Below, piece after piece: positions 2,725 to 57,169 of a stretch of 64,000 nt of DNA (its first letter is position 1; each line of letters begins with the position of its first letter). A program made the position numbers and the translations under genes. The stretch is from Deltaproteobacteria bacterium (GTDB lineage: Bacteria; Desulfobacterota; DSM-4660; Desulfatiglandales; HGW-15). The notes below the pieces were generated by a model. It saw nothing but the letters and a program-made list of their open reading frames with translations, searched no databases and was not told the origin of the DNA. The DNA lies in assembly GCA_016930795.1 (NCBI GenBank), contig JAFGFY010000004.1:16421-80420 (forward strand), given 5' to 3'.

Positions 2725-5700
2725 CTACATATTCATTCCATCTGCGAGCGTATCTATCATGGCCAATATTTGCTCATCTTTAAAATTGTTGACCTGAAAT
2801 GCCTTGGCCGGACAGATACTCGCACAGATTCCGCATCCCATGCATTTGACCTCATTGTGGCTCACCTTCCCCTCCTCGTCGATATAGGGGGAACCATAGG
2901 GACAAAGCCTGAAGCACGTGAGACATGACATACACATATCCCGATTGTGCTTGGAGATGATCCCGGAAACGGCCAGTTTGTCTTGAGACAGGATGACACC
3001 GGCGCGGCCGGCAGCGGCCATGGCCTGGGAAATGGTCTCATCCAGGTTTTTAGGGGCATGCGCCAGCCCACATAGGAAGATGCCCTCGGAGGGGAAGTCT
3101 ACGGGGCGAAGCTTGACATGAGCCTCCAACAGGTAGCCCTCCGGATTGCATGTCAGTTTGTAAATTTTGCCGACCTCTTCTGTTGTCGGGTGAGGTCGGA
3201 GGCCTGTGGAAAGCACCAGCCAATCCGCTTCAAACTCGACATCTCGGCTGAGCATGTAATCGAAGGCCTTGATTCGAAGTTTGTCTTCTGAGACCTCCAC
3301 CTGGGGTTTCCTCTCGGGAATGTAGTTTACAAAGATCACACCCAAATCGCGTGCCTTAGAGTAGTAGGTTTCCCTGAGACCGTATGTCCTGATGTCACGG
3401 TAGATGATGACGACCTGCGCATCAGAGGACTTTTCCTTGATGGCGATAGCGTTCTTTATGGCGTCTTGACAGCAAATACGAGAGCAGTAATTGTCAGGTT
3501 CCTCTCTGGAACCCACACACTGGATCATGACAAATTTTTCACCCGAGCGGACACCATGGCCAACTGCAAGCCTCTTTTCCAGGTTACGCTGAGTGATCAC
3601 CCTATCGTTTTCCCCGTAAAGGTACTCCGTGGGCTCATATTCGATGCCGCCAGTGGCCACGATAATGGCCCCGTGTTCAAACGAGGTCCCGTCTGTCAGG
3701 GTCGTCTTGAAGTTGCCCACAAAACCGTTGGTGGATTTGACCTCAGTGCCCGTGTGAAGGATGATCCGCGGGTGGGCCTGAATCTCATCGATTTTGGCTT
3801 TCAAAAATTCCTGTACATCGCTTTTGTCCAGTGTATAAAAGAGATTCCGAGCCAGACCGCCCAGTTCAGTCTCCCTTTCCACTATATGGACATCAAACCC
3901 CTGATCACCCAATGAAAGCGCGGCGATAATGCCGGCCACACCGCCCCCGATGACCATGGCCGCGGGAATAACGCTTACTGAATCGGTGGAGACCGGCTCA
4001 AGCAGCCTTGATTTGGCCAAAGTCATCTTGACAATTCTGATGGCCTTTTCTGTGGCATCTTCATTTTGTCCCATGTGGCACCAGGAGCATTGCTCTCGGA
4101 TGTCGGCAAGCTCGAACAAATATTTGTTCAGGCCCGCATCACGTATGGTATCCTGAAAAAGGGGTTCATGGGTGCGCGGCGTGCATGAGGCCACCACGAC
4201 CCTGTTCAGTTCTTTTTCCCTGACGAGCGCTTTGATCTTATCCTGACTATCCTGGGCGCAGGCGTAGATCACGTTCTCAGCGTGAACCACACCCTGTTCA
4301 CCCTTCACGGATTCGACCACTTGTTCCACGTCTACGGTCTGACTGATGTTGATGCCGCAATGGCATACGAAAACACCGATTCTGGCTTCTTGTCCGTTGA
4401 TGTCCGTTTCCGGCGGCAGTTCCTTGGTTACGATTTCACTGCCACGGGCCTCGCTGAGCAGTGCCATGGTCCGCCCGGCTACGGCGCTTCCCTGCATCAC
4501 AGTCTCGGGTATGTCCTTGGGGGACTGGAATATACCGCTGACAAATACGCCGTCTCGGGAGGTATCAATCGGTCGGAATTGTGTGGTTTTTGGGAAGCGG
4601 TGCTCATTGAGTTCGATATCAAAGGTCTTGGCCAGATCTTTAACATCCGAATGAGGCTGAAAGCCTATGGACAGAACGACCAGGTCAAATGTTTCATCCA
4701 CTAACGTCCCGTCCTCCTTGGCGTAACGCAATATCAGATTGCCTGTGCCGGGTTCTTCTCGGACCGCAGAGACCATGGCCCGCTGGTATTTGACGCCGTA
4801 ATCGTTTTTGGCGCGATCTACATACTTGTCAAAATCCTTGCCAAAGGCGCGAAGCTCCATATAAAAGATAGTGGGAGCAATATGGTCATCATGTTCTCTG
4901 GCAATGATGGCCTGCTTGGTGGCGTACATGCAGCAGACCGAGGAGCACCAGGGGTTGGCGTTGTGCCGGTCTCGGGATCCCACGCATTGTATCCACGCGA
5001 TTCTTTCGGGATGCTTGCCGTCCCCGGGACGCTTCACTTCTCCCCGGTATGGGCCTGAGGCAGAAAGGATGCGCTCAAACTGGATGGACGTTACCACATT
5101 GGGCCAACGACCAAATCCCAATTCCTGTCGGACCTTGGCGTCATAACGGTCAAGACCGGGGGAGAGAATGATGGCGCCAACCTTGAGCTCGATCTCCTCT
5201 TCCTGCTGATCAAAGTCAATGGCACCTGCTTCGCACAGCTTTTCGCAGGCCCTGCATTTACCTTTTTGGAAGAATATACAATTGTCTTTGTCGATGACAC
5301 GGGTGCTGGGAACGGCCTGAGGAAAGAGTGAGTAAATGGCCTTACGTTCAATAAGGCCCTGCTCGTATCCGCTGATGACCTTTTTAGGACATTTCTGCTC
5401 GCACAGCCCGCAACCCGTGCATTTCGCTGAGTCCACGTAACGCGGATGTTGCACTACTCTGACCGTGAAGTCCCCCGGTTTCCCCTCAACTGATAGAACC
5501 TCGGCAAAGGTATGGATATCAATGTTTAGGTGCCTCCCAACCTCCACCATCTTGGGTGATATCATACACATGGCGCAGTCACCGGTGGGAAAGGTCTTGT
5601 CCAGCATAACCATGGTCCCACCGATGCTTGAGTCTTTCTGGACCATGTGTACCTTAAAGCCGGCTTCAGCAAGATCGAGAGCTGACTGCATCCCGCCCAC

Positions 5701-5766
5701 ACCGCCGCCTGCGATCAGGACCGACCCTCTTACTCTTTTATCGCTTGAGGAGGAACTATTACTCAT
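2725..5766 (-). CDS. hdrA: Large HdrA-family FAD/Fe-S protein with two flavin-binding halves (1013 aa)
   Basis: Two GGGxxG motifs (GGGVGG, GGGVAG), LDKTFPTGDCAMC, two IQCVGSR...CSxxCC motifs, VFVCHCG, inserted and C-terminal ferredoxin CxxCxxCxxxC motifs. Confidence 0.92.
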   Translation of the reverse strand: MSNSSSSSDKRVRGSVLIAGGGVGGMQSALDLAEAGFKVHMVQKDSSIGGTMVMLDKTFPTGDCAMCMISPKMVEVGRHLNIDIHTFAEVLSVEGKPGDFTVRVVQHPRYVDSAKCTGCGLCEQKCPKKVISGYEQGLIERKAIYSLFPQAVPSTRVIDKDNCIFFQKGKCRACEKLCEAGAIDFDQQEEEIELKVGAIILSPGLDRYDAKVRQELGFGRWPNVVTSIQFERILSASGPYRGEVKRPGDGKHPERIAWIQCVGSRDRHNANPWCSSVCCMYATKQAIIAREHDDHIAPTIFYMELRAFGKDFDKYVDRAKNDYGVKYQRAMVSAVREEPGTGNLILRYAKEDGTLVDETFDLVVLSIGFQPHSDVKDLAKTFDIELNEHRFPKTTQFRPIDTSRDGVFVSGIFQSPKDIPETVMQGSAVAGRTMALLSEARGSEIVTKELPPETDINGQEARIGVFVCHCGINISQTVDVEQVVESVKGEQGVVHAENVIYACAQDSQDKIKALVREKELNRVVVASCTPRTHEPLFQDTIRDAGLNKYLFELADIREQCSWCHMGQNEDATEKAIRIVKMTLAKSRLLEPVSTDSVSVIPAAMVIGGGVAGIIAALSLGDQGFDVHIVERETELGGLARNLFYTLDKSDVQEFLKAKIDEIQAHPRIILHTGTEVKSTNGFVGNFKTTLTDGTSFEHGAIIVATGGIEYEPTEYLYGENDRVITQRNLEKRLAVGHGVRSGEKFVMIQCVGSREEPDNYCSRICCQDAIKNAIAIKEKSSDAQVVIIYRDIRTYGLRETYYSKARDLGVIFVNYIPERKPQVEVSEDKLRIKAFDYMLSRDVEFEADWLVLSTGLRPHPTTEEVGKIYKLTCNPEGYLLEAHVKLRPVDFPSEGIFLCGLAHAPKNLDETISQAMAAAGRAGVILSQDKLAVSGIISKHNRDMCMSCLTCFRLCPYGSPYIDEEGKVSHNEVKCMGCGICASICPAKAFQVNNFKDEQILAMIDTLADGMNM

Positions 5767-6638
5767 ATTAGGTTCAACTCCTTCAGGAGGCCAATTGTAT
5801 CCACAAAATGCCTGTCGATTTGTAGCTCTTCAGGGGATTTATCCATGGCCACTCCAATCAACTCGGTGATGAAGTAGACCGGCATGTCCTGATCGATGTC
5901 GTATTTTTGTTTCATTTGTTCCTGATATGCATCAAGGTTAAGCTGGCACATGGGGCAAGTGGTGACAAAACAGTTGGCTCCTCTTGCAACGGCGTCCTTG
6001 AAGATCTTCGACATGAGAAGGAGCGCTGTATCGATGTCGTTAACGGTCGCGGATGCCCCACAGCAGTCGGTCTTGTAGCTCCAGTCTATGGGATTCGCGC
6101 CCAGGGCCTTGAGTACGATCTCCATGCCCTGCGGATTTTCTACATCATCGGGCACGGGCACATCATATGGGAACCTGGTCTGCAGACATCCATAGTAACA
6201 TGCAGGTTCTAAACCCTTGAGCTGTTTGGTCGTCTTTTCGGCTAGCTCACCGGATTCAGCCTTCGGCACCAACACCTCAAGGATACTCATAATTCTAATG
6301 TTGCCTTTTACCTTCTTGGTCAACTCCGCATTGATCTCATCCTTCAGTCTATGGTTAGACGCAAGCCTATGTTGCGCGACCAGCATCCGGCTGTAGCAGG
6401 CCGAGCAGGGGATCACCAATTCGGAGAGACCGCTGTTGTCCGCAATGCCCAGGTTCCGTGCGGGCATGGCAACGGATAGGAAGTCGTCGGTCTTGCTGGC
6501 AGAGGTGGCACCGCAGCAATTCCAGTCTTCGAGTTCGTTCAGGTTTATTCCCATTTCCCCTAGGACCAACTTGGTCTGTATGTCATAGATCTGACTCGAT
6601 GCGTGTAATGTGCATCCAGGATAATAGGCTATTTCCAT
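5763..6638 (-). CDS. hdrB: HdrB-family CCG-domain subunit
   Basis: YYPGC, WNCCGA, PCSAC, YYGC, DCCGA, TCPMC; ATGA overlap with hdrA. Confidence 0.92.
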   Translation of the reverse strand: MEIAYYPGCTLHASSQIYDIQTKLVLGEMGINLNELEDWNCCGATSASKTDDFLSVAMPARNLGIADNSGLSELVIPCSACYSRMLVAQHRLASNHRLKDEINAELTKKVKGNIRIMSILEVLVPKAESGELAEKTTKQLKGLEPACYYGCLQTRFPYDVPVPDDVENPQGMEIVLKALGANPIDWSYKTDCCGASATVNDIDTALLLMSKIFKDAVARGANCFVTTCPMCQLNLDAYQEQMKQKYDIDQDMPVYFITELIGVAMDKSPEELQIDRHFVDTIGLLKELNLI

Positions 6639-6656
6639 TATGTTCCCTCACTCACT

Positions 6657-7277
6657 TCAGACTCCATCAGCGGCTCGCTTTTTTGCTTTCTTGAGAAGGC
6701 GCTTGAGATCTGAAAGGTGTTTGACCTTTTGGATCCCGAAATGCATGCGCTTTTTCTTGGTCATACGCAGGCCGAGTTTCGCCTGGAGCATGGTCTCTTT
6801 GAATATTTCTCTGAACTTGAAGTGTATGAGGTCGTGGAAGGCGTTCTTTATTTCATAGAGACCCATGAATTCGATTTCATTGAGCCTTCCCAAGTGGTTG
6901 GCTGCGGTGCAGAAGGATTTGTGGAAGGCAGCGACCTTTGGAAGGAGTGGATCCAGATGTTCCTCTTTGGACATATGTTTGAGGGTCTCGATGATCTTTG
7001 CAGTCTGTATTTCGTTTGGGCAGCGGGTGCCGCAGGTATAGCATGACACGCACTTCCAGACTAGTTTATTGCTGAGGGCCTGTTCCCGGTCGCCAAGCAG
7101 TATCATTCGGATCAAACGGTCAGGCGTGACATAGCCGGTTTCTTCCCCCACAGGACATCCTGCGGCACATCGTCGGCATTGATAACAGGCGGTGATGTTC
7201 TGTTCCGAACGCGACATGACCTCATGGATAAATGCTTGTGTGTTTTCGTGTTCGTAATCTAAGACAGGAAGCGCCAT
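6657..7277 (-). CDS. hdrC: HdrC-family 2x[4Fe-4S] subunit
   Basis: CYQCRRCAAGCP and CVSCYTCGTRCP; first gene of the hdrCBA run. Confidence 0.9.
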   Translation of the reverse strand: MALPVLDYEHENTQAFIHEVMSRSEQNITACYQCRRCAAGCPVGEETGYVTPDRLIRMILLGDREQALSNKLVWKCVSCYTCGTRCPNEIQTAKIIETLKHMSKEEHLDPLLPKVAAFHKSFCTAANHLGRLNEIEFMGLYEIKNAFHDLIHFKFREIFKETMLQAKLGLRMTKKKRMHFGIQKVKHLSDLKRLLKKAKKRAADGV

Positions 7278-7487
7278 TTAAGTATTCCTTGGTCCCTTAT
7301 GATTCTCCAAGCCTAATTCACGAAATCTTTCACGATCGCCCTTTTTTACATTTCGAACCATGAGATGCCTATCTCATATTCGGTTTATTTCTATTTCAGG
7401 ATGTAGTGGGGTATAGATCCGAAGAGGGGCCATCTCTAGCTCGATCTGGGGATTTCCATCAGCCTGAAAGGGGGCGGAGATTCGAAT

Positions 7488-7505
7488 TTGTGAAATAATT
7501 AACAT
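7488..7505. promoter_or_regulatory. Rex-like operator
   Basis: TTGTGAA-ATAA-TTAACAT versus Rex consensus TTGTGAA-N4-TTCACAA (2 mismatches); overlaps the predicted -10/+1 of the hdrC promoter. Confidence 0.55.
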
Positions 7506-7529
7506 GCCATTTCAGAGGCCATGTGTCAA
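7501..7529 (-). promoter_or_regulatory. Predicted sigma70 promoter of hdrCBA-mvhD-metVF
   Basis: Minus strand TTGACA (7529..7524), 17-nt spacer ending TGG, CATGTT (7506..7501). Confidence 0.45.
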
Positions 7530-7663
7530 GGGGAAAATTCTTCCGGGCATGATCTGCATTGGATTGCTGGTTTGTCACGTAACATTCTGGAATCTAATAT
7601 CATATTCCGTTTAGGGCTCAAAGGGAAGGACCCCAAGAGTTTTTTTTGGACAAGATTTTGTTG

Positions 7664-7693
7664 TTGACCTCCTGCGCTAGCGTCTGGTACAAA
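7664..7693 (+). promoter_or_regulatory. Predicted sigma70 promoter of the membrane Hdr genes
   Basis: TTGACC (7664..7669), 18-nt spacer, TGn-extended TACAAA (7688..7693). Confidence 0.4.
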
Positions 7694-7721
7694 AGTCAAC
7701 CAAACCCTCCAGCTTGCGGAG

Positions 7722-9485
7722 ATGAGGCCCATTATGTTTTTCAGCATCTGCCTGTATACTGCTCTGAGCATATTCCTTCTCGGCCTTTTTTGGAAAATTT
7801 CCACTTGGTTCCGTTATAGTGTCGGACCCGGATCCCGAGAGATCAAAACCTCAAAAAGGCTTTTTGCAGCCATTAAAGGAAGCATTCTTACCATATTAAG
7901 CCCAAAAGTCCTGACTCTTCTAAAAGTCTTTGTTTTGGATGTCCTTTTTCAGAGAAGGATATTTATAGAAAGTCGTCTCCGGTGGCTCATGCACATGTGC
8001 ATATACGGCGGATTCATGCTGTTGCTCCTCATGCATGCCCTTGAACATTTCATTACCATCACTCTCTTTCCGGACTATGCTTCTACACTCAATCCTTTTC
8101 TCTTTCTGAGGACCCTCTTTGGTCTCATTGTCATGCTTGGATTGGGGATCTCTTTTTACAGGCGCCACATCCTGAAGATCCCTCGTCTCATCAATAATGC
8201 CATGGATCATTACATGGTGATTATCCTCGCTGTTATCATGATCTCCGGTTTTCTGCTGGAGGGGACTAAGATTGTATCTCACACCAGATATCAAGAGATG
8301 GTGGAAGACTGGTCGGACGTGGATGATGAAGAATCGTTTGAGGCATTGGAAAGCTATTGGGTTGAGAAGTTCGGTGTTGTTTCGCCTGATTTAGAGGGGC
8401 CCTTTGATGAAGAGACCCTTGACCTGGGCAAAGAATTGCATGAGACGAATTGTGAGGCCTGTCATTCCAGACCTCAGTGGGCGTTTATAAGCTATGGGGT
8501 CGCGAAGATCGTATCGCCTCTCGCCGTTTCAATGGATAAGGCCGATGTTCACACGATTCTGTGGTCCCTGCATTTCCTGGCCTGTTTTGTAGGCTTGGCT
8601 TATCTTCCTTTCAGCAGGATGTTTCATATTATTGCCGGTCCCCTGAGTCTGCTTGCAAATTCTGTAATGGACAGAAAAAGATCAGACCGCGCCAATATAG
8701 CCACGAGGCAGGTGATGGAAATGGACGCCTGCACGCACTGCGGGGCATGCAGTTTGCATTGTTCTGTGGGTGTCCTATTCGAACAGATGCAGAACGTAAA
8801 CATCCTTCCGTCTGAAAAAATGGCATCCGTAAAAAGATTCACAGCAAATAGGACAGCCAAAGAAGGGGACATAAAGCATATTCAGGAGGGGCTCTATCTG
8901 TGTACCAATTGTTGCAAATGCACCTTGGTCTGCCCGGTTGGCATCAATCTCCAAGATCTGTGGTTCGACATGAGAGAGACCTTTATTCAAGATGGCCATC
9001 CGGAGGTGTTCACCCTTTCTACACTCTCATTCTATCGCGGGTTGAGGAAAGATGAGTTGAATGAAAAGGATTATGAAAAACCCTTGCAGCAGGCCAGCCA
9101 AGCCCTGGCTGAGGAGTGCGGTTTATTTGATTCGGTGGATACGCCCATAGATCTTGGAAGTCTGGACGAGAGTTTTGAGAAGGATCTGCGAACATCAGCT
9201 CAAGGAAGCACCTTTTCCTTTTGTTTTACCTGTACAACCTGTACGAGTGCCTGTCCCGTGGCATTGAATTACGATGACCCCCCGAATGTCCTCGGGCTGA
9301 CTCCTCACCAAATTATGCGCGCCACCGCCATTGGGCTCCCTGATCTTATTTTTCGCTCAAAAATGCTTTGGACCTGCCTGGGTTGTTATCAGTGCCAGGA
9401 GGCCTGTCCTCAAGGGGTTCGTGTCACAGATATCCTTTATGCATTGAAGAATATGGCCATAAGGCGAGTTAAAGAGAAGACATAA
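7722..9485 (+). CDS. Membrane redox protein: NarI/HdrE-like cytochrome b domain + CxxCH loop + two HdrC-like Fe-S domains
   Basis: About five hydrophobic segments with His pairs (WLMHMC...LMHAL; SLHFL...MFHII), NCEACHS, and four CxxCxxCxxxC motifs (CTHCGACSLHC, CTNCCKCTLVC, CFTCTTCTSAC, CLGCYQCQEAC). Confidence 0.8.
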   Translation: MRPIMFFSICLYTALSIFLLGLFWKISTWFRYSVGPGSREIKTSKRLFAAIKGSILTILSPKVLTLLKVFVLDVLFQRRIFIESRLRWLMHMCIYGGFMLLLLMHALEHFITITLFPDYASTLNPFLFLRTLFGLIVMLGLGISFYRRHILKIPRLINNAMDHYMVIILAVIMISGFLLEGTKIVSHTRYQEMVEDWSDVDDEESFEALESYWVEKFGVVSPDLEGPFDEETLDLGKELHETNCEACHSRPQWAFISYGVAKIVSPLAVSMDKADVHTILWSLHFLACFVGLAYLPFSRMFHIIAGPLSLLANSVMDRKRSDRANIATRQVMEMDACTHCGACSLHCSVGVLFEQMQNVNILPSEKMASVKRFTANRTAKEGDIKHIQEGLYLCTNCCKCTLVCPVGINLQDLWFDMRETFIQDGHPEVFTLSTLSFYRGLRKDELNEKDYEKPLQQASQALAEECGLFDSVDTPIDLGSLDESFEKDLRTSAQGSTFSFCFTCTTCTSACPVALNYDDPPNVLGLTPHQIMRATAIGLPDLIFRSKMLWTCLGCYQCQEACPQGVRVTDILYALKNMAIRRVKEKT

Positions 9486-9510
9486 AGCCTTCTAACCGGA
9501 GATTAGTATC

Positions 9511-10413
9511 ATGGATTTTGCCATACAACGTTGCTGTGTAACACCTATGTATCTGAAATCATACGATAGCTCAACGGATGCGGTCCTGAGGGCACTTGGT
9601 ATAGGATTTGTGGACATCAAGGGGTTCAACTGTTGCGGGTACCCTTTGAAGGATATTGACCTAAAGGCCTTCGTTCTCGCTTCGGCAAGAAATCTGTGTC
9701 TGGCTGAAAAAAGCGACCTCAATGTCATGACATTCTGTAACTGCTGTTACGAGAGCCTGAAAGAGGCGAATCATCTCTTAAGAGAGGATGAGTCCATAAA
9801 GAGGGGCATCAATGAGAAATTGATGAAGGAAGACTTGAAGTATGGTGGTTCCACGAAGGTGAGGCATCTGCTGGAGGTACTCTACAATGATGTGGGCTTA
9901 GAGGCCTTAAAAGAAAAAGTGACCATGCCCTTCAAAGGCTTGAAGATCGCAGTACATTATGGCTGCCATATTCTGCGCCCAAGGCAACTGGTCCAATTCG
10001 ATGATCCTGGAACGGCTAAGGTGTTTGATCAACTGGTACAGATTACAGGAGCGGAGATTGTTCCCTGGGAAGCGCAGCTCGACTGCTGCGGGGCCCCCGT
10101 GTGGGGAATAGATGATGATCTTTCCATGGATCTGACTCAGAAAAAGATTAGGGATGCCCGTCAGTCCGGCGCCGATTTTATATGTGTGGCCTGTGCCTAT
10201 TGTCAGCTTCAGTTCGATAGAGTTCAGAGGATGCTTCTTTCCAAGAGAGGAGAAGACAAGGGTCTCCCTTCGATCCTTTTTACACAGCTCCTTGGTTTGA
10301 GCTTAGGCGTAGATTCAAAGGCCCTTGGAATTGACCAAAACGAACTGGATGCGATGGGGATTAAACATTTTCTATCCTCCGAAGAATCCCCCATCCAATT
10401 AAGTGTTGTTTAA
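9511..10413 (+). CDS. hdrB: Second HdrB-family CCG-domain subunit
   Basis: FNCCGYP, FCNCCY, VHYGCH, DCCGAP, ACAYCQLQFD. Confidence 0.88.
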   Translation: MDFAIQRCCVTPMYLKSYDSSTDAVLRALGIGFVDIKGFNCCGYPLKDIDLKAFVLASARNLCLAEKSDLNVMTFCNCCYESLKEANHLLREDESIKRGINEKLMKEDLKYGGSTKVRHLLEVLYNDVGLEALKEKVTMPFKGLKIAVHYGCHILRPRQLVQFDDPGTAKVFDQLVQITGAEIVPWEAQLDCCGAPVWGIDDDLSMDLTQKKIRDARQSGADFICVACAYCQLQFDRVQRMLLSKRGEDKGLPSILFTQLLGLSLGVDSKALGIDQNELDAMGIKHFLSSEESPIQLSVV

Positions 10414-10838: not shown

Positions 10839-11237
10839 ATGGATGTCAGCGTTATAATGAAGAAAGACCGCAAGGCCCAACATTATAATATTGACAGTGA
10901 TATCGTCACCATTGGAAGGTCTTCTGAGAATGATATTCAGATTTCTGATAAGTATATTTCCCGTGAGCACCTGAGAATACGGCAGAAGGGCGACAAGTTT
11001 TTCGTAAGAGACTTAGGGAGTGAAAATGGGACGTTTGTTAATGGGATTCAAATACCCTTGGGTATTAATATAGAAGTGGCAAAAGGGACGGCCATTATTA
11101 CCGGTATGAGTGTAATCTTCCTCGGTGAAGGGGATTCCGGGCATGTTTTTGCCTTTCTTGAATCGATTGGTCCCGGCGAGCAGAGCAGGGATGAGACGGG
11201 GACAATCATCCTGAGTGATACCCTCCATCCTGAGTGA
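10839..11237 (+). CDS. Stand-alone FHA-domain protein
   Basis: TIGRS, ISREH, DLGSENGTFVNG FHA motifs; RBS GGAGG upstream. Confidence 0.85.
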   Translation: MDVSVIMKKDRKAQHYNIDSDIVTIGRSSENDIQISDKYISREHLRIRQKGDKFFVRDLGSENGTFVNGIQIPLGINIEVAKGTAIITGMSVIFLGEGDSGHVFAFLESIGPGEQSRDETGTIILSDTLHPE

Positions 11238-12546: not shown

Positions 12547-13731
12547 TTGGATGGAGATTTGAGGCGCAAGGTGAATACCAGCGAAGTAACCCGATTAAGT
12601 TACGAGAATAAAAAAATCATACTCATCGGCACAGCCCATGTATCCCGGCAGAGTGCCGAATTGGTGAAAAATATCATAGAAGAGGTAAAACCCGATACGG
12701 TCTGCGTGGAACTATGCCAATCCAGGTATGAAACGATCACGAAAAAGAAAAAATGGCAAGAAACAGACCTTCTAATGGTCATCAGAGAAAAGAAGGCCTT
12801 CTTGCTTCTGTCAAACCTCATGCTCAGCTATTTTCAAAAGAGAATTGGGAAGAAGTTGGGCATAACCCCGGGGGAGGAAATGATGCAGGCCATCGCGTCT
12901 GCCAAGACTGTTGGGGCCGGACTACACTTGGCAGACAGGGATATCCGCATTACCCTGTCCAGGACATGGCACATGATGAGGTTGTGGACAAAGATCAAAC
13001 TGTTGGCCGGGCTTGTGACCTCAGCAGGTGATATCGGTGCAATCCAGGAGGAAGATGTCGAAGAACTGAAGAACAAGGATATGCTGACGTTTTTTCTGTC
13101 GGAGATTGGAGAATCATTGCCGGAAATAAAGCGAACCTTGATCGATGAGAGAGACGAGTATTTGACCTACAAGATCAGGAACGCCCCAGGTGAAAAGGTT
13201 GTGGCCGTAGTCGGGGCAGGACATGTACCGGGTATTCAAACCCATTGGGAGAAACCGATAGATATCAATCAACTGGAGAAGATCCCTCCAAAAGGTAAGC
13301 TCTCTCTTTTCTTCAAGTGGGGAATACCGGTTCTGATCATAGGAATTATTGTCTCGGGCTTTTTCATGGCAGGGTCGACGGCCGGCACCGATATGATCAA
13401 ATGGTGGATCCTGGCCAATGCCGTCCTGGCAGGGCTTGGAGCGGGACTCGCATTGGCTCATCCCTTGACCGTGCTCTCTGCCGTGGTCGCCTCTCCCATC
13501 ACATCCCTTAATCCCATGATTGCGGCGGGCTGGGTCGCGGGTATGGTGGAAGTCTTTCTAGGCAAACCGAAAGTGATGGATTTCGAAAGACTTCCTGAGG
13601 ATATCTCTTCCCTGAAGGGGTTTTGGAGGAACAAGGTTACACGTATTTTGCTTGTGGTGGTGTTTACGAATCTGGGGAGCAGCCTGGGAGCCTTTGTGGC
13701 CATTCCCCTCATGATGAGAGTATTCGGGTAA
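12547..13731 (+). CDS. TraB/GumN (pheromone shutdown TraB-like) family protein
   Basis: LIGTAHVS, VCVELC, LIDERDEY, VVGAGHVPGI plus C-terminal TM segments. Confidence 0.85.
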   Translation: MDGDLRRKVNTSEVTRLSYENKKIILIGTAHVSRQSAELVKNIIEEVKPDTVCVELCQSRYETITKKKKWQETDLLMVIREKKAFLLLSNLMLSYFQKRIGKKLGITPGEEMMQAIASAKTVGAGLHLADRDIRITLSRTWHMMRLWTKIKLLAGLVTSAGDIGAIQEEDVEELKNKDMLTFFLSEIGESLPEIKRTLIDERDEYLTYKIRNAPGEKVVAVVGAGHVPGIQTHWEKPIDINQLEKIPPKGKLSLFFKWGIPVLIIGIIVSGFFMAGSTAGTDMIKWWILANAVLAGLGAGLALAHPLTVLSAVVASPITSLNPMIAAGWVAGMVEVFLGKPKVMDFERLPEDISSLKGFWRNKVTRILLVVVFTNLGSSLGAFVAIPLMMRVFG

Positions 13732-13744
13732 TCCAGATCCTGGA

Positions 13745-14959
13745 TTACTGATATCTCTTCTGCTGAAAGAGCTTTTTGTTTGGTGTGGCAGAGATATAGT
13801 AAAACTTGTCCAAGGGAACGTAAATGTAGGGGACATCCTCTTTTCGACGGTAGAGAAAATGGGAGAGAATCATGCGGTTTGCAGCCCGGTGTGCGATGAT
13901 CATGATGTTTCCGGAGGGCCCGCTTAGGTAAAGCGCCTTTTTAATACCTCGCTCAATCCTCTCTTCCATTGAAATGTAACCTTCTCCTTCGGGGTAGACG
14001 TAATTGTATTTATCTTTTTTCCTGGAAAGAAAGACCTGAGGCATCTCTTCCCTGATCTCCTTATAGCTCATCCCTTCACATTGCCCGCTGTCAATTTCAT
14101 TGAACTCGGCAAAGGGGACGATTGTGCAGTTTCTTTGCCGTTCCTTGATGGGCTCCGCGGTTTGAATCGTCCTTTTCCGCTGACTGGTGAAGATAAGCGG
14201 GATGTCTTTGTTCGCGAAATACTTCGCCAAGGCCCTGGCCTGGGCCTTGCCGTTATCTGTGAGACCAGAATCGCCACCGATACGATTTTCCAGATTAAAA
14301 TAGGTTTCACCATGGCGGATGATGTGGAGGTTCTTCACCATATCCGTCACTAGGAAATCTCTTATTTGATCATATAGAGGGATCTCGTCGGAGATCTCTT
14401 CTTCAAAAATTTTCGTGTGAAGAGAATCCAAGATGACCCTGTTCTTTTCTTTTTCCAGAGGGTTGTAGATGGATTCATAATATAAAATCCGTTGATTGAA
14501 ACTGGCTATGGACTCTTCTCGACTCAGATGGGTGAATTCGGGTAGGGTTATTTTTCTGAGTAGGCTGGTATTCACAATCTCTTTGTCGTCAGTGATACAT
14601 TCAATGAAGAGTATGGGATGGTCATTGAGAAGGGTTTCAATGTATTCTCTACGTTGGAGACTGGCATTAGTCGCGTCTATGATGGCCACGGTCCCGCTTT
14701 TTTTAAGGTATCTTTTCGCCCTATTTAAATTGATCAGGGCGATTTTTTCTCTGATAGCGACGCTTTCCTTGTTCTTCGGATCATAGAACTCTGCGTAAGA
14801 TGTATTATTCGGAATCATCTTACGTCTTAGATCGCCATTGTTGAAAATCCTTGCTTTGATTGCGTCGCACCTTAGGTTGTCTCTGAGTTTGACGGCTGTG
14901 ACCGACTTGCCTCTGACAGGGAGGCCAACCATAACGATATAGAGTTTATGGTCTGTCAT
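13745..14959 (-). CDS. Bifunctional 6-phosphofructo-2-kinase/fructose-2,6-bisphosphatase-like protein
   Basis: Kinase half MVGLPVRGKS, FNNGDLRR, IIDATN, FNQRILYY; histidine-phosphatase half RHGET, RTIQTA, NEIDSGQCEGMSY, YPEGE, IAH. Confidence 0.85.
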   Translation of the reverse strand: MTDHKLYIVMVGLPVRGKSVTAVKLRDNLRCDAIKARIFNNGDLRRKMIPNNTSYAEFYDPKNKESVAIREKIALINLNRAKRYLKKSGTVAIIDATNASLQRREYIETLLNDHPILFIECITDDKEIVNTSLLRKITLPEFTHLSREESIASFNQRILYYESIYNPLEKEKNRVILDSLHTKIFEEEISDEIPLYDQIRDFLVTDMVKNLHIIRHGETYFNLENRIGGDSGLTDNGKAQARALAKYFANKDIPLIFTSQRKRTIQTAEPIKERQRNCTIVPFAEFNEIDSGQCEGMSYKEIREEMPQVFLSRKKDKYNYVYPEGEGYISMEERIERGIKKALYLSGPSGNIMIIAHRAANRMILSHFLYRRKEDVPYIYVPLDKFYYISATPNKKLFQQKRYQ

Positions 14960-15043
14960 GTGTGTTTCCTTGATAGTGACTAAAGAAGCAATACAATCAT
15001 TTGAAACGAGCGAATTGCAATAATAGAAAGATCCTTACATTTG

Positions 15044-15076
15044 GAAGATTCCCCGCGGCTTGCCGCGGGGATCTTC
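15044..15076. repeat. GC-rich palindromic element (REP/IS200-IS605-end-like hairpin)
   Basis: GAAGAT-T-CCCCGCGGC-TT-GCCGCGGGG-ATCTTC; lies between divergent genes, so it is not a terminator. Confidence 0.55.
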
Positions 15077-15201
15077 AATCAAACGATTCAGTGCGAACCA
15101 AAGGTGTTACAAACCTTCTACACTATGATAGAATGGAAGTAAATAGCCAGCCGGCGCGTCTCTCCCACAAACACTTTCTCTGCGGGCGGTCCATTTGAGA
15201 T

Positions 15202-16449
15202 ATGATACACATCAATAAGCTCTTAGTCGTTTATCTTGTCGTCTATCTTCTCAGTACTTCCTTAGGTCTGATCATAAAGTGGGTCAATGCCGGAAATCTC
15301 AGACGATATCGGGGTGAAATCCCGGCCCCTTTTCGCGGCATTATCGACGAAAAAGAGCTTGAAAGAATGGACCGCTACACGGTTGATAAGACAAACTTGT
15401 CCTATGTGGAAACGGTCATTAGCAGGGCGATCTTCCTCTTTGTCATTCTGTCCGGCCTATTGCCCTGGCTGGCTGATGTTTTGGAGGATGTCTATTTGAT
15501 ATGGGCGGGCCTCATCTTCTTTGCTGTTCCCGGGTTAATAGGGGCTGCCGCCGATCTCCCATTTGAATACTATCACCTTTTCAGGATTGAGGATAAATAT
15601 GGTTTCAACACCCTAACCCGGAAGATCTGGGTCATGGATCTTTTCAAGTCGCTGCTGATCACCCTATTCATCGGGGTTTTTCTGCTCTCCCTTCTCCTGC
15701 TGATGATCCAATATGTCGAAGGCAGTTGGTGGATCTGGGCTTGGCTTATCTTTTTTGGCTTTCAAATTCTGATGACGATAATTTATCCCACCGTTATTGC
15801 CCCTATTTTCAATAAGTTTACTCCCTTGGAAAACCGTGAACTTACAGAAAGAATTAGGCGCCTGGCAGAAAAAGAAGGATTTGCAATAAAAGGCATATTC
15901 CAGATGGATGCAGGGAAGAGGAGCCGTCATAGCAACGCGTATCTATCAGGCTTTGGAAAGACCAAAAGGATTGTGCTCTTCGACACCCTGCTGGGGTCCC
16001 ATGATGATGATGAGATCTTGGCCGTGCTTGCCCATGAGATAGGACATTTTAAGAGAAATCATATTAAGAAACAGCTCGTTATCATGGGCCTTTTTTCCCT
16101 AATCTTTTTCTATCTGATTTCATGGATGATCTCATGGGCTCCCATGTATCATGCATTTGGGTTTTCCGGAATGCCGGTCTATGTGGGACTCTTTCTTGTC
16201 GCCGTTCTCTGGGAGCCGCTGGGATTCTTTCTCTCCCCCGTATCCATGGCTGTTTCCAGGCGGTTTGAGCGAGAGGCGGACCGTTTCGCTTTCAATGTGA
16301 TGAAAAGCGCGCAACCCCTTGTGAAAGCATTAAAAAAGATGGCCAAAGACAATCTTTCCAATCTTCGACCCCACCCCCTTTACGTCCGTTTTAACCACTC
16401 TCATCCCCCTCTATTAGAGAGGATCAGGGCCCTTGAAGAGATGAGCTAG
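15202..16449 (+). CDS. M48 family (Ste24-like) membrane zinc metallopeptidase
   Basis: Multiple TM segments, SNAYLSG, LAHEIGH, SRRFEREAD, SHPPLLERI. Confidence 0.92.
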   Translation: MIHINKLLVVYLVVYLLSTSLGLIIKWVNAGNLRRYRGEIPAPFRGIIDEKELERMDRYTVDKTNLSYVETVISRAIFLFVILSGLLPWLADVLEDVYLIWAGLIFFAVPGLIGAAADLPFEYYHLFRIEDKYGFNTLTRKIWVMDLFKSLLITLFIGVFLLSLLLLMIQYVEGSWWIWAWLIFFGFQILMTIIYPTVIAPIFNKFTPLENRELTERIRRLAEKEGFAIKGIFQMDAGKRSRHSNAYLSGFGKTKRIVLFDTLLGSHDDDEILAVLAHEIGHFKRNHIKKQLVIMGLFSLIFFYLISWMISWAPMYHAFGFSGMPVYVGLFLVAVLWEPLGFFLSPVSMAVSRRFEREADRFAFNVMKSAQPLVKALKKMAKDNLSNLRPHPLYVRFNHSHPPLLERIRALEEMS

Positions 16450-16644
16450 GCCGTGTCTCTATCCCTTTTCGACAGTACCTTTAGTCATGACTTGTGTTAT
16501 TTGACAGATAGTCTATAATGATTAATTTATTCTATTGAATTTAGGCGGTTGGGAATCGCCTTCCGATGTTCCGGACGCGGGGAGGGCGAGAGAGAAAGCC
16601 TTTTCTCAACGAAAATAGATACGATTTTTGCTGGGAGGATCAAA

Positions 16645-17352
16645 ATGTTAGGATCATATTCCGTTTCCAGGCCATCGATGGAAGTCATGGTCAATGATTT
16701 TGTGCGAAGCGTCTATAACTGGATGTGCATAGGGCTCGCGCTGACGGGCTTCACGGCCTTTTACGTCTCTTCCAGTGAGACCATGCGTCAACTTGTTTTC
16801 GGCAACCAGCTCATCTTTTTTGGGCTCATCATCGCGGAACTGATCATGGTATTCTCTCTGGTCAGCAGGGTGAAGCGAATGAGCGCCGGCACGGCCACAT
16901 CCCTGTTCGTGGTCTACTCCGTCCTAAACGGCGTGACCCTCTCGTTTATTTTCCTTGTTTATGCATCCGCATCCATTGTCAGCACCTTCTTTATCTGCGC
17001 AGCGACCTTTCTGGCATGCAGCTTTTATGGCTGGACCACCAAGAAGGACCTGACATCTTTTGGCGGTTTTCTCTTGATGGGCCTGTTTGGGATTATCATA
17101 GCGTCCGTGGTCAATATATTTATACAAAGCACTGTGATGCAAATGATGGTCAGCTATATCGGCGTCTTCGTATTTGTGGGACTGACCGCCTACGATACAC
17201 AGAAGCTGAAGAATATGGCGCTGAGTCAACCCGCCGGTTTGGACGGGGCCGTGATCAGAAAGGGTGCCATTATGGGCGCGCTTTCATTGTATCTAGATTT
17301 TATCAACCTCTTCCTATTCTTATTGAGGATACTCGGACAGGGTCGAGATTAG
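16645..17352 (+). CDS. Bax inhibitor-1/YccA family membrane protein
   Basis: Seven-TM pattern, TAYDTQKLK, GALSLYLDFINLF; ATG 16645 with GGGAGG RBS preferred over 16549. Confidence 0.9.
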   Translation: MLGSYSVSRPSMEVMVNDFVRSVYNWMCIGLALTGFTAFYVSSSETMRQLVFGNQLIFFGLIIAELIMVFSLVSRVKRMSAGTATSLFVVYSVLNGVTLSFIFLVYASASIVSTFFICAATFLACSFYGWTTKKDLTSFGGFLLMGLFGIIIASVVNIFIQSTVMQMMVSYIGVFVFVGLTAYDTQKLKNMALSQPAGLDGAVIRKGAIMGALSLYLDFINLFLFLLRILGQGRD

Positions 17353-17472
17353 AGCAGGCCAGAGGAATTCTTACGGGCGGGATCTATAATAGAGACTAGA
17401 GCACCCTCTATATGGACTATACTGCTATGAGAGGAGACCCGTAGCGAGGAAAGCCGAAAGATTTGAAGCCAT

Positions 17473-18405
17473 ATGGAACCGGCCTATGTAAAGCTGTTTC
17501 GGGAAGGAGGACTGACAGAACGGATCAATAGGGCGATAGCCCTGATGGAGGCTTGCAGGCTCTGCCCCCGTGAATGCGGAGCAAACCGCTTGGAAGGGGA
17601 ACGGGGTATCTGCAAGACCGGAAGAAGGGCGATCATCTCCAGCTTCAACGCCCATTTCGGGGAGGAATCCCCGCTTGTGGGTCGATATGGTTCCGGTACT
17701 ATCTTTATAGGGGGGTGTAATCTCCTTTGCAGTTTTTGCCAGAATTATGAGATCAGCCATTCGAAAGAGGGTGTGGAGGTAGAACCGGAACAGATGGCCG
17801 CCATGATGATTCATCTGGCGGAGAGGGGATGTCACAACATCAACTTTGTGACCCCCACCCACGTGGTTCCTCAGTTGCTTGAGTCCCTGGCACAGGCCGC
17901 GGAACATGGGCTGGATATCCCCCTTGTCTATAACTCCAGTGGCTATGACAAGAAGGAGACCCTTGAGCTTTTGGACGGAATTGTGGATATATACATGCCG
18001 GATTTTAAGTTTTGGTGTGGCCGTTGGTCTGAGAGGTATTGCGAGGCCCCTGATTATCCTGAAAGGGCTAAGGAGGCCCTTAAAGAGATGCACCGGCAGG
18101 TGGGAGATCTGGCTATGGATGACCAGGGTGTGGCGGTCAGGGGACTTTTGGTGCGGCACCTGGTCATGCCAGGGGATATTGCCGGAACTGAAAAGGTGCT
18201 CGAATTCATTGCCCATGAAATCTCCCCCAGTACCTATGTCAATGTGATGGATCAATACAAACCGTGCGGAAACGCACATAGAGATGAATATATAAACCGA
18301 CGTTTATCGTCTCGGGAATTCAGGGAGGCGATGGAGGTGGCCAGGAGGGCAGGGTTGACGCGACTCGATTCACGAGATCGTGTTCGGCTCCTATTTGCGA
18401 AATGA
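17473..18405 (+). CDS. Radical SAM protein, PflX-like
   Basis: CRLCPREC, GCNLLCSFCQN (CxxxCxxC), HNINFVTP, YMPDFKF, RHLVMP. Confidence 0.85.
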   Translation: MEPAYVKLFREGGLTERINRAIALMEACRLCPRECGANRLEGERGICKTGRRAIISSFNAHFGEESPLVGRYGSGTIFIGGCNLLCSFCQNYEISHSKEGVEVEPEQMAAMMIHLAERGCHNINFVTPTHVVPQLLESLAQAAEHGLDIPLVYNSSGYDKKETLELLDGIVDIYMPDFKFWCGRWSERYCEAPDYPERAKEALKEMHRQVGDLAMDDQGVAVRGLLVRHLVMPGDIAGTEKVLEFIAHEISPSTYVNVMDQYKPCGNAHRDEYINRRLSSREFREAMEVARRAGLTRLDSRDRVRLLFAK

Positions 18406-19052
18406 TGAATAGCGAAAGAATATTTATAGTGGGAGATGTTCACGGGTGCCTGGATATGCTCAGAAGGCTGATGGATAAAATCGATTGGCGACCCAACCAA
18501 GACAATCTGATCTTTCTTGGAGACTACATTGACCGGGGAAAAGAATCCAAAGGCGTGATTGACTATATTCTTGATCTCAAGAAGGAATCCTCACGCGTTC
18601 AATGCATTATGGGAAATCATGAAAACATTCTGTTGGACTTTCTAAATACCGGGGAGCCCAGGCTGCTGATCATAAACGGCGGAATCCCTACTTTGGAAAG
18701 CTACCAGGCGGCCAATGATAATGAGGATGACCCCCTGATTCCCCCTGAGCACGTGGCCTTCTTCAAAGACCTTATTCCATATATAGAACTTGAAGATTAC
18801 TATGTGGTTCATGCAGGATTCCGACCGGGCGTGCCTATTGAGGACCAATCCCTTGAAGACCTGATATGGATTAGGGAGCCTTTCATTTTCTCCAACCATG
18901 ACTTCGGAAAGACGGTGATATTCGGTCATACCCCCATAGCTGAGCCTTTGATGATGGACAACAAGATAGGCCTGGATACCGGGGCCGTGTACGGGAATAG
19001 ATTGACCTGCCTTGAGCTTCCTCGCATGAAATTCCACTCGGTGGAGGCCTAA
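18402..19052 (+). CDS. PPP-family metallophosphoesterase (Ser/Thr phosphatase-like)
   Basis: GDVHG, GDYIDRG, GNHE, VHAG, FGHT, DTGAVY. Confidence 0.9.
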   Translation: MMNSERIFIVGDVHGCLDMLRRLMDKIDWRPNQDNLIFLGDYIDRGKESKGVIDYILDLKKESSRVQCIMGNHENILLDFLNTGEPRLLIINGGIPTLESYQAANDNEDDPLIPPEHVAFFKDLIPYIELEDYYVVHAGFRPGVPIEDQSLEDLIWIREPFIFSNHDFGKTVIFGHTPIAEPLMMDNKIGLDTGAVYGNRLTCLELPRMKFHSVEA

Positions 19053-19056
19053 GTAT

Positions 19057-20070
19057 TTGACCGAGGCCATAGATTATTCAACAGCGATCGGCATGACGTC
19101 CACCATCCCGGTCGAGATCGTCCTCGCGGCGGGACTCACACCTGTGGACCTCAACAACACCTTTGTCACTTCAGATGAATCAGAGAAACTTCTTGGCCGG
19201 GCGGAAACCGCCGGTTTTGCCCATAACATCTGCGCGTGGATCAAAGGGATCTATTCTGCCGTCATGCATCATGGCGTGAAGAGGGTGATTGCCGTCACCG
19301 GAGGGGACTGCAGCAATACCCTGGCCTTGGCGGAAGTTCTCAGCCGAAGGGGGGTCGAGATCATTCCCTTTGATTACCCCCTGAATCGGGATAGATCATC
19401 CCTCATGGAACAGATGGAGAAGTTGAGAGGGAGACTCTCAGCCACCTGGCCTGATATCCGTGAGACAAAAAAGCGTCTGGACGGGATCCGGAAAAAGTTG
19501 GTAGAGCTGGACAGACTCACGTTCCATGATAACGTGGTCAGTGGTTTTGAAAATCACCTTTTTCTGGTGAGTAGTTCGGATTTCAATTCTGATCCCGATC
19601 TTTATGAAAAAGAGCTTGATGCGTTTCTCCAGAAAGCCAGGACCAGAGAGTCGAAGAAGGAGAAGGTCAGACTCGGATACCTGGGTGTGCCTCCCATATT
19701 CACCGAACTCTTTGACTGTGTGGAGTCACTTGGCGGCAGGGTGGTCTTTAACGAGATCCAGAGGCAGTTCAGCATGCCGTACGGCTGCGAGGACTTGACA
19801 GAACAATACCTAAAATACACCTATCCGTATGATATGCAGGGAAGGATCGAGGATATCAAGAGGGCTGTCGAGGAGAGGCGGTTGGACGGCCTTATTCATT
19901 ACACCCAGACCTTTTGTTTCAGACAGATCTACGATATTATTCTGAGGGAAAGCTTCTCCATTCCCATTCTCACCCTGGAGGGTGACAGACCCGGCCCCTT
20001 AGACAGCCGCACAGCCCTACGTATCGAGACATTCATTGACATGTTGACCTCTAGAGCCGTATTCGCGTAA
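19057..20070 (+). CDS. 2-hydroxyacyl-CoA dehydratase (HgdB/FldB-like) family subunit
   Basis: ICAWIKG, GGDCSN, HYTQTFCFR, LTLEGD, RIETF; TTG start. Confidence 0.75.
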   Translation: MTEAIDYSTAIGMTSTIPVEIVLAAGLTPVDLNNTFVTSDESEKLLGRAETAGFAHNICAWIKGIYSAVMHHGVKRVIAVTGGDCSNTLALAEVLSRRGVEIIPFDYPLNRDRSSLMEQMEKLRGRLSATWPDIRETKKRLDGIRKKLVELDRLTFHDNVVSGFENHLFLVSSSDFNSDPDLYEKELDAFLQKARTRESKKEKVRLGYLGVPPIFTELFDCVESLGGRVVFNEIQRQFSMPYGCEDLTEQYLKYTYPYDMQGRIEDIKRAVEERRLDGLIHYTQTFCFRQIYDIILRESFSIPILTLEGDRPGPLDSRTALRIETFIDMLTSRAVFA

Positions 20071-49499: not shown

Positions 49500-50531
49500 T
49501 CAAACCCTCCTCTCCCCACTGAGGAATGCCTCCGCCGTTTCCACGTCTTCTTTGCTTCCAATATATAACGGGACCCTTTGGTGTAAATCCGTAGGCTGAA
49601 TCTCGAGAATAGGACCTTTCCCATCGCTGGCATATCCACCCGCCTCCCTCACGACCATGGCAAGAGGATTGGCCTCAACCATCAGTCTTAGCTTTCCTGT
49701 GGGCTTTTTCGGGTCTTTAAGATCCGCAGGATACATGAAAATGCCCCCTTTAAGGAGGTTTCGGTGAAAGTCGGCGACCAAGCTCCCCACGTAACGGGAG
49801 GTGTAGGGACGGCCAGTTGTCTTATCTTTTTGCTTGAAATAGTCCACCAAGGCCTTTGTGTCTTCATCCCAATACTGATAGTTCCCCTCATTTAGACTGT
49901 ATATCTTTCCCTTTTCAGGGATGCGGATATTTTCATGGGAAAGGAGGAACTCTCCAACACTGGGATAGAGGGTGAAGCCATTGACTCCGTTTCCTGTCGT
50001 ATACACCATAATGGTGCTTGAGCCATAAATGAAATAGCCTGCGGCCACTTGCTTGATTCCAGGCTGAAGCGCATCGGTGAGAAGAAAATCCACGTCTGTT
50101 TCGTCACTTACCTTCCTGTAAATGCCGAATATGGTGCCGATGCTTACGTTAACATCAATATTGGACGAGCCGTCCAGAGGGTCAAAGAGGAGGATGTAGT
50201 TCCCCTTTGGATATTGAGACGGTATATCAATGAGCTCCGCGACTTCCTCTGAGCCCATGCAACAAAGCTGGCCGATATGCTGCATTCTCTCGATGATCAC
50301 CCGGTTAGAGAACACATCCAGCTTCTGGACCCGTTCCTGCTGAACGTTTATCTCACCTGTAGAGCCAAGAATGTCCCCCAGGCCTGCTTTGTTGACTTCC
50401 CAAGAGATGACTTTGGCCGCTACGATGAGTTCGTTGAGTAGGTAGGTAAAGGCGCCGGTGGCTTCGGGATTTTGCCGCTCCTCCATCAACAAGTGCTGAG
50501 TAATAGTAATGCCTACACCTTTTTTGTCCAT
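49500..50531 (-). CDS. fbp: Fructose-1,6-bisphosphatase class I
   Basis: QKLDV, GSEE, FDPLDGSSNID, RYVGSLVADFHR, GKLRL. Confidence 0.95.
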   Translation of the reverse strand: MDKKGVGITITQHLLMEERQNPEATGAFTYLLNELIVAAKVISWEVNKAGLGDILGSTGEINVQQERVQKLDVFSNRVIIERMQHIGQLCCMGSEEVAELIDIPSQYPKGNYILLFDPLDGSSNIDVNVSIGTIFGIYRKVSDETDVDFLLTDALQPGIKQVAAGYFIYGSSTIMVYTTGNGVNGFTLYPSVGEFLLSHENIRIPEKGKIYSLNEGNYQYWDEDTKALVDYFKQKDKTTGRPYTSRYVGSLVADFHRNLLKGGIFMYPADLKDPKKPTGKLRLMVEANPLAMVVREAGGYASDGKGPILEIQPTDLHQRVPLYIGSKEDVETAEAFLSGERRV

Positions 50532-57109: not shown

Positions 57110-57139
57110 GATCTATGACTCATCCCATGCTTTTTAGAC

Positions 57140-57169
57140 ATTATATTTTTCGTTCTGGGTTCTTGTCAA
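57140..57169 (-). promoter_or_regulatory. Consensus sigma70 promoter of psd
   Basis: Minus strand TTGACA (57169..57164)-N18-TATAAT (57145..57140). Confidence 0.6.

Follow-up and report, generated by a model that had tools for sequence, protein, structure and literature searches.

A predicted bifunctional 6-phosphofructo-2-kinase/fructose-2,6-bisphosphatase of Desulfobacterota and its conserved neighbourhood with a class I fructose-1,6-bisphosphatase

Introduction

Fructose-2,6-bisphosphate (Fru-2,6-P2) is taught as a purely eukaryotic signal. Among the closest described enzymes to the one considered here are the vertebrate 6-phosphofructo-2-kinase/fructose-2,6-bisphosphatases (PFK-2/FBPase-2) PFKFB1-4, represented by structures of human PFKFB3 (2AXN/4D4J), the rat testis enzyme (1BIF) and the human liver enzyme (1K6M). 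In the eukaryotic core, the kinase is driven, and the phosphatase held back, by fructose-6-phosphate (Fru-6-P). Fru-2,6-P2 itself is an active-site inhibitor of class I fructose-1,6-bisphosphatases (FBPases), as established for the eukaryotic enzymes, and inhibition has also been reported for the E. coli FBPase in vitro. Here, we describe a PFK-2/FBPase-2 homologue of 404 residues encoded in a 64,000-nucleotide stretch of DNA from a Deltaproteobacteria bacterium (contig JAFGFY010000004.1, positions 16,421 to 80,420), the whole of which is referred to as the window and supplies all coordinates given below unless a locus is named.

Monofunctional PFK-2/FBPase-2 variants are said to be common in unicellular eukaryotes, and the fusion of kinase and phosphatase has reportedly been placed in the common ancestor of eukaryotes, both in work by Michels and Rigden of 2006. 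A copy in Desulfovibrio is likewise said to have been proposed as the product of a transfer. A fungal PFK-2 paper (PMC9721465) names D. desulfuricans as a bacterial exception and cites Rider et al. 2004 for it, and a giant-virus PFK-2/FBPase-2 has been reported as well (PkV RF01 ORF 539; bioRxiv 10.1101/2020.07.30.228163).

A first-pass annotation of the window, made by reading the sequence without database searches, had called the gene a eukaryote-type PFK-2/FBPase-2 with intact catalytic motifs. We followed up this proposal by examining the domain content, active-site residues, predicted structure, phylogeny and genomic neighbourhood of the protein.

Results

The gene encodes a minimal catalytic core with both enzymatic domains in a single chain:

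13745..14959, minus strand: PFK-2/FBPase-2 homologue, 404 residues; uninterrupted open reading frame with an ATG start, both Pfam domains and a match to PFKFB1-4
14348..14956, minus strand: 6-phosphofructo-2-kinase domain, residues 2-204 (Pfam PF01591); Walker A motif GLPVRGKS at 14903-14926
13811..14329, minus strand: fructose-2,6-bisphosphatase (histidine phosphatase) domain, residues 211-383 (Pfam PF00300); His216 codon at 14312-14314

The reading frame and its extent were as first annotated. So was the tandem architecture: an N-terminal 6PF2K domain (E 9e-40, 137 bits against a cut-off of 27) is followed by a C-terminal His_Phos_1 domain (E 2e-37, 129 bits against a cut-off of 21.7), which is the domain order that defines the family. 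In a phmmer search of PDB sequences, residues 2-385 matched human PFKFB3, human and bovine PFKFB2, rat testis PFKFB4 and human liver PFKFB1 at E 2e-64 to 1e-61, and single-domain histidine phosphatases ranked below these at E 1e-12 or worse. No equivalog model reached its cut-off in an NCBIfam scan, which returned sub-threshold single-domain histidine phosphatases only (TIGR03162, 94 bits against a cut-off of 163). The motifs noted by eye at the outset were all recovered, both in the kinase half (GLPVRGKS at residues 12-19, NNGDLRR at 40-46, DATN at 95-98 and RILYYESIY at 157-165) and in the phosphatase half (RHG at 215-217, RTIQTA at 263-268, NEID at 287-290 and IIAH at 354-357). This combined motif and domain match is far beyond chance. 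Every sequence property of PFK-2/FBPase-2 (EC 2.7.1.105 / 3.1.3.46) that we tested was present, and the 404-residue protein is, as judged from its sequence, a native bacterial member of the family. The N- and C-terminal extensions that carry the regulatory phosphorylation sites of the eukaryotic PFKFB isoenzymes are absent from it: the Walker A motif begins at residue 12 (residue 42 in PFKFB3), and the chain stops about 20 residues past the phosphatase core. The other members of its clade are similarly short, at about 395-436 residues.

Active-site conservation was read from an alignment of the window protein, residues 32-416 of human PFKFB3 and 130 bacterial relatives, in PFKFB3 numbering. 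The ATP, Fru-6-P and phosphatase ligand positions were those regarded as functional in the PFKFB enzymes. In the kinase half, G42, P44, G47, K48, S/T49, N70, G72, R75, R76, R99, D125, R133, R134, K169, R190 and Y194 are invariant in 131 of 131 bacterial sequences; at position 127, 130 of them have Thr and the remaining one has Ser. The corresponding predicted Fru-6-P ligands of the 404-residue protein (R45, R70, T97, R103, R157 and Y161) are all present, as are the catalytic residues K136 and D95 and the Walker A stretch G12-S19, which are invariant across the set. In the phosphatase half, R253, H254, N260, G266, R303, E323, Y334, R348, K352, Y363, H388 and R393 are likewise invariant. The catalytic set of the 404-residue protein comprises R215-H216-G217, E288 and H357; the Gly of this set is kept in 128 of the 131 sequences and the other residues in all of them. 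Every residue predicted to bind the 2- and 6-phosphates (N222, R263, Y299, R313, K317, Y328 and R362) is invariant as well. Position 303 is always Arg in the bacterial sequences and Ser in PFKFB3; Arg is also the residue of the phosphatase-active liver (R307) and testis isoforms.

Both halves of the gene are under purifying selection, as indicated by dN/dS ratios of 0.05-0.15. Measured against its two closest orthologues, L001 (94% amino acid identity) and L002 (89%), the ratio was 0.085 and 0.136 over the whole gene; for the kinase half alone it came to 0.12-0.15, and for the phosphatase half to 0.05-0.12.

An AlphaFold2 model built from a 35-sequence alignment (m048518e79b6c) had a pLDDT of 89.9 and a pTM of 0.87. 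Its best 26 Foldseek matches in the PDB were all PFKFB structures (E-values from 4e-36 to 7e-33 at a probability of 1.0, over some 414 aligned columns), and the modelled phosphatase domain superposed on rat liver FBPase-2 (1tip) with a TM-score of 0.90 and a root-mean-square deviation of 1.9 A.

The first-pass remark that such homologues are annotated in some deltaproteobacteria proved correct, and the family is large in Desulfobacterota. A search of 5.8 billion proteins returned at least 1641 homologues at E <= 1e-10 from prokaryotic metagenomes. The best 120 of these matches are all about 395-436 residues long, 66-92% identical to the window protein and assigned to Desulfobacteraceae, Desulfatiglandaceae or 'Deltaproteobacteria'. 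Their names are inconsistent, ranging from 'AAA family ATPase' and 'histidine phosphatase family protein' to 'broad specificity phosphatase PhoE/predicted kinase'; some members are already labelled '6-phosphofructo-2-kinase/fructose-2,6-bisphosphatase' by NCBI. Among GTDB species genomes, close relatives were found in Desulfobacteraceae, in Desulfatiglandales (including strain NaphS2) and in five Candidatus Scalindua genomes; the closest is an uncultured Desulfobacteraceae metagenome-assembled genome (MAG; L001), whose gene order is colinear with that of the window. An exhaustive search of representatives clustered at 50% identity gave 292 clusters at E <= 1e-30, of which a few make up the bacterial clade: P0121 (59% identity), P0122 (46%, Desulfovibrio sp.), P0125 (42%, a Nanobdellota archaeon MAG) and P0126 (41%). 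Proteins of eukaryote length (450-1100 residues) rank next at 30-37% identity, and Myxococcota MAGs contribute a distinct group of about 400 residues. Two scans of viral contigs yielded no relatives.

The first-pass annotation had called for a phylogeny against eukaryotic PFKFB, and this set the bacterial proteins apart. In a neighbour-joining tree of 131 sequences over 376 columns, which was unrooted or midpoint-rooted, had no outgroup and may be subject to long-branch effects, the bacterial clade of about 404 residues split from all other sequences in 100% of 200 bootstraps. Under midpoint rooting it falls outside all long eukaryote-type sequences and is nested in no eukaryotic group. The term 'eukaryote-type' overstates closeness, since the bacterial proteins form their own clade, are about 33% identical to the eukaryotic sequences and lack the regulatory tails. 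A further grouping between bacteria and eukaryotes, 'short-form clade B', was dropped at 16% bootstrap support; one of its members is encoded on Tara Oceans contigs, flanked by NCLDV capsid genes.

Copies at 64-67% identity occur in the five Candidatus Scalindua genomes and one Planctomycetota MAG (L007-L009, L012, L019 and L025). The five full-length Scalindua sequences are monophyletic (100%), and their group sits among the sequences from Desulfobacterota. At all six loci the genomic neighbours are unrelated to those in Desulfobacterota; in Scalindua they are MurJ, purine and thiamine genes, MltA and a Na/H exchanger. Together, the nesting and the unrelated neighbours indicate a single inter-phylum transfer into the anammox genus Scalindua. 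Separately, the 405-residue Nanobdellota (DPANN) homologue P0125 (L034, 8001-9218) lies inside the bacterial clade and reflects either a transfer or a binning error.

Within Desulfobacterota, the PFK-2/FBPase-2 gene is recurrently found near a gene for a known class of Fru-2,6-P2-responsive enzyme, which the source genome of the window also carries:

49500-50531, minus strand: class I FBPase (Pfam FBPase, E 1e-64, and FBPase_C, E 4e-45)

The encoded protein matches E. coli FBPase (2gq1) at E 3e-97. A class I FBPase gene lies upstream of the PFK-2/FBPase-2 gene at 15 of about 19 Desulfobacterota loci (L003-6, L010, L011, L013, L014, L017, L021, L022 and L035-L038). The shared order on one strand is an AI-2E transporter, a receiver-domain protein (in most of the 15) and FBPase; one to five opposite-strand genes follow (HGD-D, metallophosphoesterase, radical SAM, Bax1-I and M48), and then the PFK-2/FBPase-2 gene. 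The two genes are 1.2 kb (L022) to 5.3 kb apart, and the downstream genes vary. That the two genes stay linked even where the block between them is reduced from five genes to one makes the linkage suggestive.

The window has the identical gene order, interrupted between HGD-D and FBPase by an insert of about 29 kb (20202-49399) with lower G+C (0.40-0.42 over 32-48 kb) that forms an exopolysaccharide or capsule synthesis and export cluster. It encodes a TPR protein, a Bac_transf sugar transferase, an FGE-sulfatase-like protein, an AAA_22 ATPase, an OmpA/VWA/TSP3 protein, MORN repeats, Poly_export/SLBB, a GNVR chain-length protein, a heparinase II/III-like protein, a Polysacc_synt flippase, Wzy_C, glycosyltransferases, WecG, UDP-GlcNAc 2-epimerase and PMT_2. 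The genes bordering the insert are adjacent in L003-L006, L037 and L038. Of these, L037 (75% identical) retains the downstream genes of the window and lacks the insert; L001 carries at least its first genes.

The immediate flanks of the PFK-2/FBPase-2 gene are as follows:

13727..13749, no strand: hairpin with a 10-bp stem over the stop codons of a convergent TraB-family gene and the PFK-2/FBPase-2 gene
14960..15201, no strand: intergenic region separating the divergent PFK-2/FBPase-2 and M48 peptidase genes, holding the ribosome-binding site and a palindrome
15202..20070, plus strand: block of M48/Ste24 peptidase, Bax1-I, radical SAM, metallophosphoesterase and HGD-D-like genes on the opposite strand (from Pfam; context only)

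The hairpin is likely a bidirectional terminator, and an AGGA ribosome-binding site (14967-14970) lies 7 nt 5' of the ATG. A near-perfect 33-nt palindrome at 15043-15075, GAAGATCCCCGCGGCAAGCCGCGGGGAATCTTC, is present as a single copy in the window. It was considered as a conserved regulatory element and rejected, because it sits in an insertion that is missing from the 94%-identical relative L001. The genes on both sides are bacterial (TraB/PrgY/GumN on one, and M48 peptidase, Bax1-I, radical SAM, metallophosphoesterase and HGD-D-like on the other), the third-position G+C of the gene (GC3, 0.546) is inside the range of its neighbours (0.53-0.63), and the same position and flanks are kept across relatives whose identity ranges from 94% to 56%.

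The remainder of the window holds other clusters. A heterodisulfide-reductase-like redox cluster typical of sulfate reducers occupies 2725-10413:

2725-5766, minus strand: HdrA-like flavoprotein with Fer4 domains, 1013 residues
5763-6638, minus strand, and 9511-10413, plus strand: CCG-domain HdrB-like proteins
6657-7277, minus strand: Fer4 protein
7722-9485, plus strand: membrane protein with NarI-like and Fer4 domains, 587 residues

Two FHA-domain proteins, at 10839-11237 (132 residues) and 52025-52933 (302 residues, with a membrane segment), hint at Ser/Thr-phosphorylation signalling in the source genome; no link between them and PFK-2/FBPase-2 has been established. A housekeeping cluster at 55083-63906 encodes, according to Pfam, a CoaD-like cytidylyltransferase, an RsmD-like methyltransferase, phosphatidylserine decarboxylase, a TsaB-like protein, the RseP (M50) protease, Dxr, CdsA, UppS, ribosome recycling factor and a UMP-kinase-like protein.

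Discussion

Based on these observations, we favour, with somewhat better than even confidence, a genuine bifunctional PFK-2/FBPase-2 that would set the level of Fru-2,6-P2 and thereby brake gluconeogenesis. The two enzymatic activities are the firmer part of this proposal, and the conserved residues make both synthesis and hydrolysis of Fru-2,6-P2 quite probable. The N-terminal half would transfer a phosphate from ATP to C-2 of Fru-6-P, and the C-terminal half would hydrolyze Fru-2,6-P2 through a phospho-His216 intermediate. Since the phosphorylation tails of the eukaryotic enzymes are missing, we infer that the level of Fru-2,6-P2 would be set by substrate and product concentrations. It would then rise with the hexose-phosphate pool and report how full that pool is. 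Inhibition of the class I FBPase encoded in the same conserved neighbourhood would follow. That this FBPase is the physiological target is the more tentative part, which we hold to be a little less probable than its opposite. Such an arrangement would act as a product-feedback brake on gluconeogenesis in an anaerobe that is mainly gluconeogenic and forms glycogen or polysaccharide, with a possible switch toward glycolysis when reserves are mobilised. A brake of this kind would suit growth on acetate, fatty acids or aromatics by cells that have hexose reserves and exopolysaccharide to build and later to mobilise.

Several observations weigh against this proposal. Around the active sites, second-shell positions have changed: C155 to N (Thr in the window protein), N164 to S, Y175 to F, R131 to L, and Q389 to R, the last in 126 of the 131 bacterial sequences. 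Superposition of the whole modelled chain on PFKFB gave a TM-score of only 0.48 with a root-mean-square deviation of 16 A, so that the modelled inter-domain orientation is unlike that of the crystal structures; the five models span pLDDT values of 74 to 90, and the divergent orientation may be an artefact of modelling a monomer or may be real. As regards the neighbourhood, the FBPase and PFK-2/FBPase-2 genes are not one operon and have unrelated opposite-strand genes between them. FBPase was not found in the flanks examined of the Desulfobacterota loci L016, L023 and L024, and beyond Desulfobacterales and Desulfatiglandales no linkage was seen at the Scalindua, Desulfovibrio, Myxococcota or Nanobdellota loci, the latter two of which have no carbohydrate-related neighbours. 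Because the linkage is confined to one class-level lineage, it may in part be inherited synteny. In the 64-kb window, no phosphofructokinase (PFK), other glycolytic gene or Fru-2,6-P2-responsive enzyme was found besides FBPase. Finally, literature searches for a characterised bacterial PFK-2/FBPase-2 or for Fru-2,6-P2 in bacteria yielded only the second-hand remark on D. desulfuricans and no biochemical or genetic study of any bacterial member, in line with the first-pass statement that no product or role was established.

Alternatively, the protein might keep the PFK-2/FBPase-2 fold and act in vivo on another phospho-sugar, such as a tagatose-, psicose-, sorbose- or sedoheptulose-phosphate, or its bisphosphate product might be an intermediate and not a regulator. 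The second-shell changes to N155, S164, F175 and R389 are consistent across the clade and would fit such a shift, as would the low identity to the eukaryotic enzymes, the fully supported split from them, the lack in the window of a PFK to be activated, the inconsistent bacterial annotation and the failure of any NCBIfam equivalog to reach its cut-off. A change of specificity, however, normally leaves a trace at the positions that contact the substrate, and the residues contacting Fru-6-P and the 2- and 6-phosphates are invariant or, in the case of T127, nearly so, and identical to the eukaryotic ones. We consider this explanation unlikely.

It is also conceivable, if rather less so, that the enzyme is effectively monofunctional in vivo, for instance a sugar-bisphosphate or general phosphatase whose kinase half serves as a nucleotide-binding regulatory domain, as in some protist and yeast isoforms, or that it makes Fru-2,6-P2 for which there is no regulatory target. 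The reported frequency of such variants among unicellular eukaryotes is compatible with this idea, as are the slightly stronger constraint on the phosphatase half (dN/dS 0.047 against 0.118 for the kinase) and the lack of a responsive PFK in the window. Known monofunctional variants nevertheless show catalytic substitutions, whereas K48, D125, K169, H254, E323 and H388 are kept throughout the bacterial set, and purifying selection acts on both halves. A third reading, in which the gene came recently from a eukaryote or is a eukaryotic contaminant of the assembly and has no bacterial role, would agree with the textbook view of the enzyme as eukaryotic and with the transfer said to have been proposed for the Desulfovibrio copy. 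It is effectively refuted by the bacterial flanks, the matching GC3, the deep synteny, the many prokaryotic homologues and a clade nested in no eukaryotic group, which leave it a very small chance.

A native bifunctional enzyme also bears on the origin of the kinase-phosphatase fusion. A bolder scenario would have the fusion arise in bacteria, with Fru-2,6-P2 signalling native and ancient in Desulfobacterota and coupled there to class I FBPase. The enzymes of eukaryotes and giant viruses would then descend from a gene of deltaproteobacterial type, and the fusion would not be a eukaryotic invention. The neighbour-joining tree is compatible with a bacterial origin of the fusion and does not establish it, and we regard the scenario as a whole as improbable.

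Bacterial copies have been on record since 2004 (Desulfovibrio), and some already carry the family name, so the novelty of the gene is lower than the first-pass annotation implied. What is added here is how large and how strictly conserved the clade is, how cleanly it splits from the eukaryotic sequences, the single transfer into Scalindua and the class I FBPase neighbourhood; this conserved neighbourhood is the new point. The result is less a surprise than a loose end, well defined and easy to test. A large conserved clade with intact active sites extends over sulfate reducers, anammox bacteria and other anaerobes, and in one lineage the classic target enzyme is encoded nearby. The question of whether bacteria use Fru-2,6-P2 is thereby directly testable. 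A core without tails would show how the switch works without hormonal phosphorylation, and since annotation of the family is inconsistent, a single assay could correct thousands of database names.

Among known systems, the window protein can be compared with vertebrate PFKFB1-4, with which it shares the order of the domains, the predicted fold of each domain, 31-37% identity in an alignment that runs from the Walker A motif to the end of the phosphatase core, and identical ATP, Fru-6-P, phospho-His, proton-donor and 2-P/6-P residues. It differs in the loss of some 30 residues at the N terminus and of the entire regulatory tail at the C terminus, together with the phosphorylation sites of both, in its bacterial host, in the clade-wide replacements at positions 155, 164, 175 and 389 and, relative to PFKFB3, in the liver- and testis-like Arg at position 303. 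The Desulfovibrio sp. homologue P0122 (MBQ7456401.1) belongs to the same clade of about 404 residues, inside the fully supported bipartition, and in its MAG (L027/L028) the gene converges on those for acetate kinase, phosphotransacetylase and pyruvate:ferredoxin oxidoreductase (ackA-pta-PFOR), a central-carbon setting unlike that in Desulfobacteraceae, with no FBPase in the flank examined. The single-domain proteins PhoE, CobC, PspA, GpmB and TIGAR have no kinase domain; like the C-terminal half, they adopt the RHG histidine-phosphatase fold (matches at E 1e-12 to 1e-6, with TM-scores of 0.83-0.87). Two Tara Oceans contigs (L032/L033, 8001-9227) encode a 408-residue protein, P0222, between NCLDV major-capsid-domain genes and by a MutS-like gene, and this is a giant-virus copy. 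The giant-virus PFK-2/FBPase-2 is, like the window protein, a tail-less core (of about 408 residues) with both Pfam domains; at 30-36% identity it falls outside the bacterial clade, in an unstable position (16% bootstrap for the short-form group).

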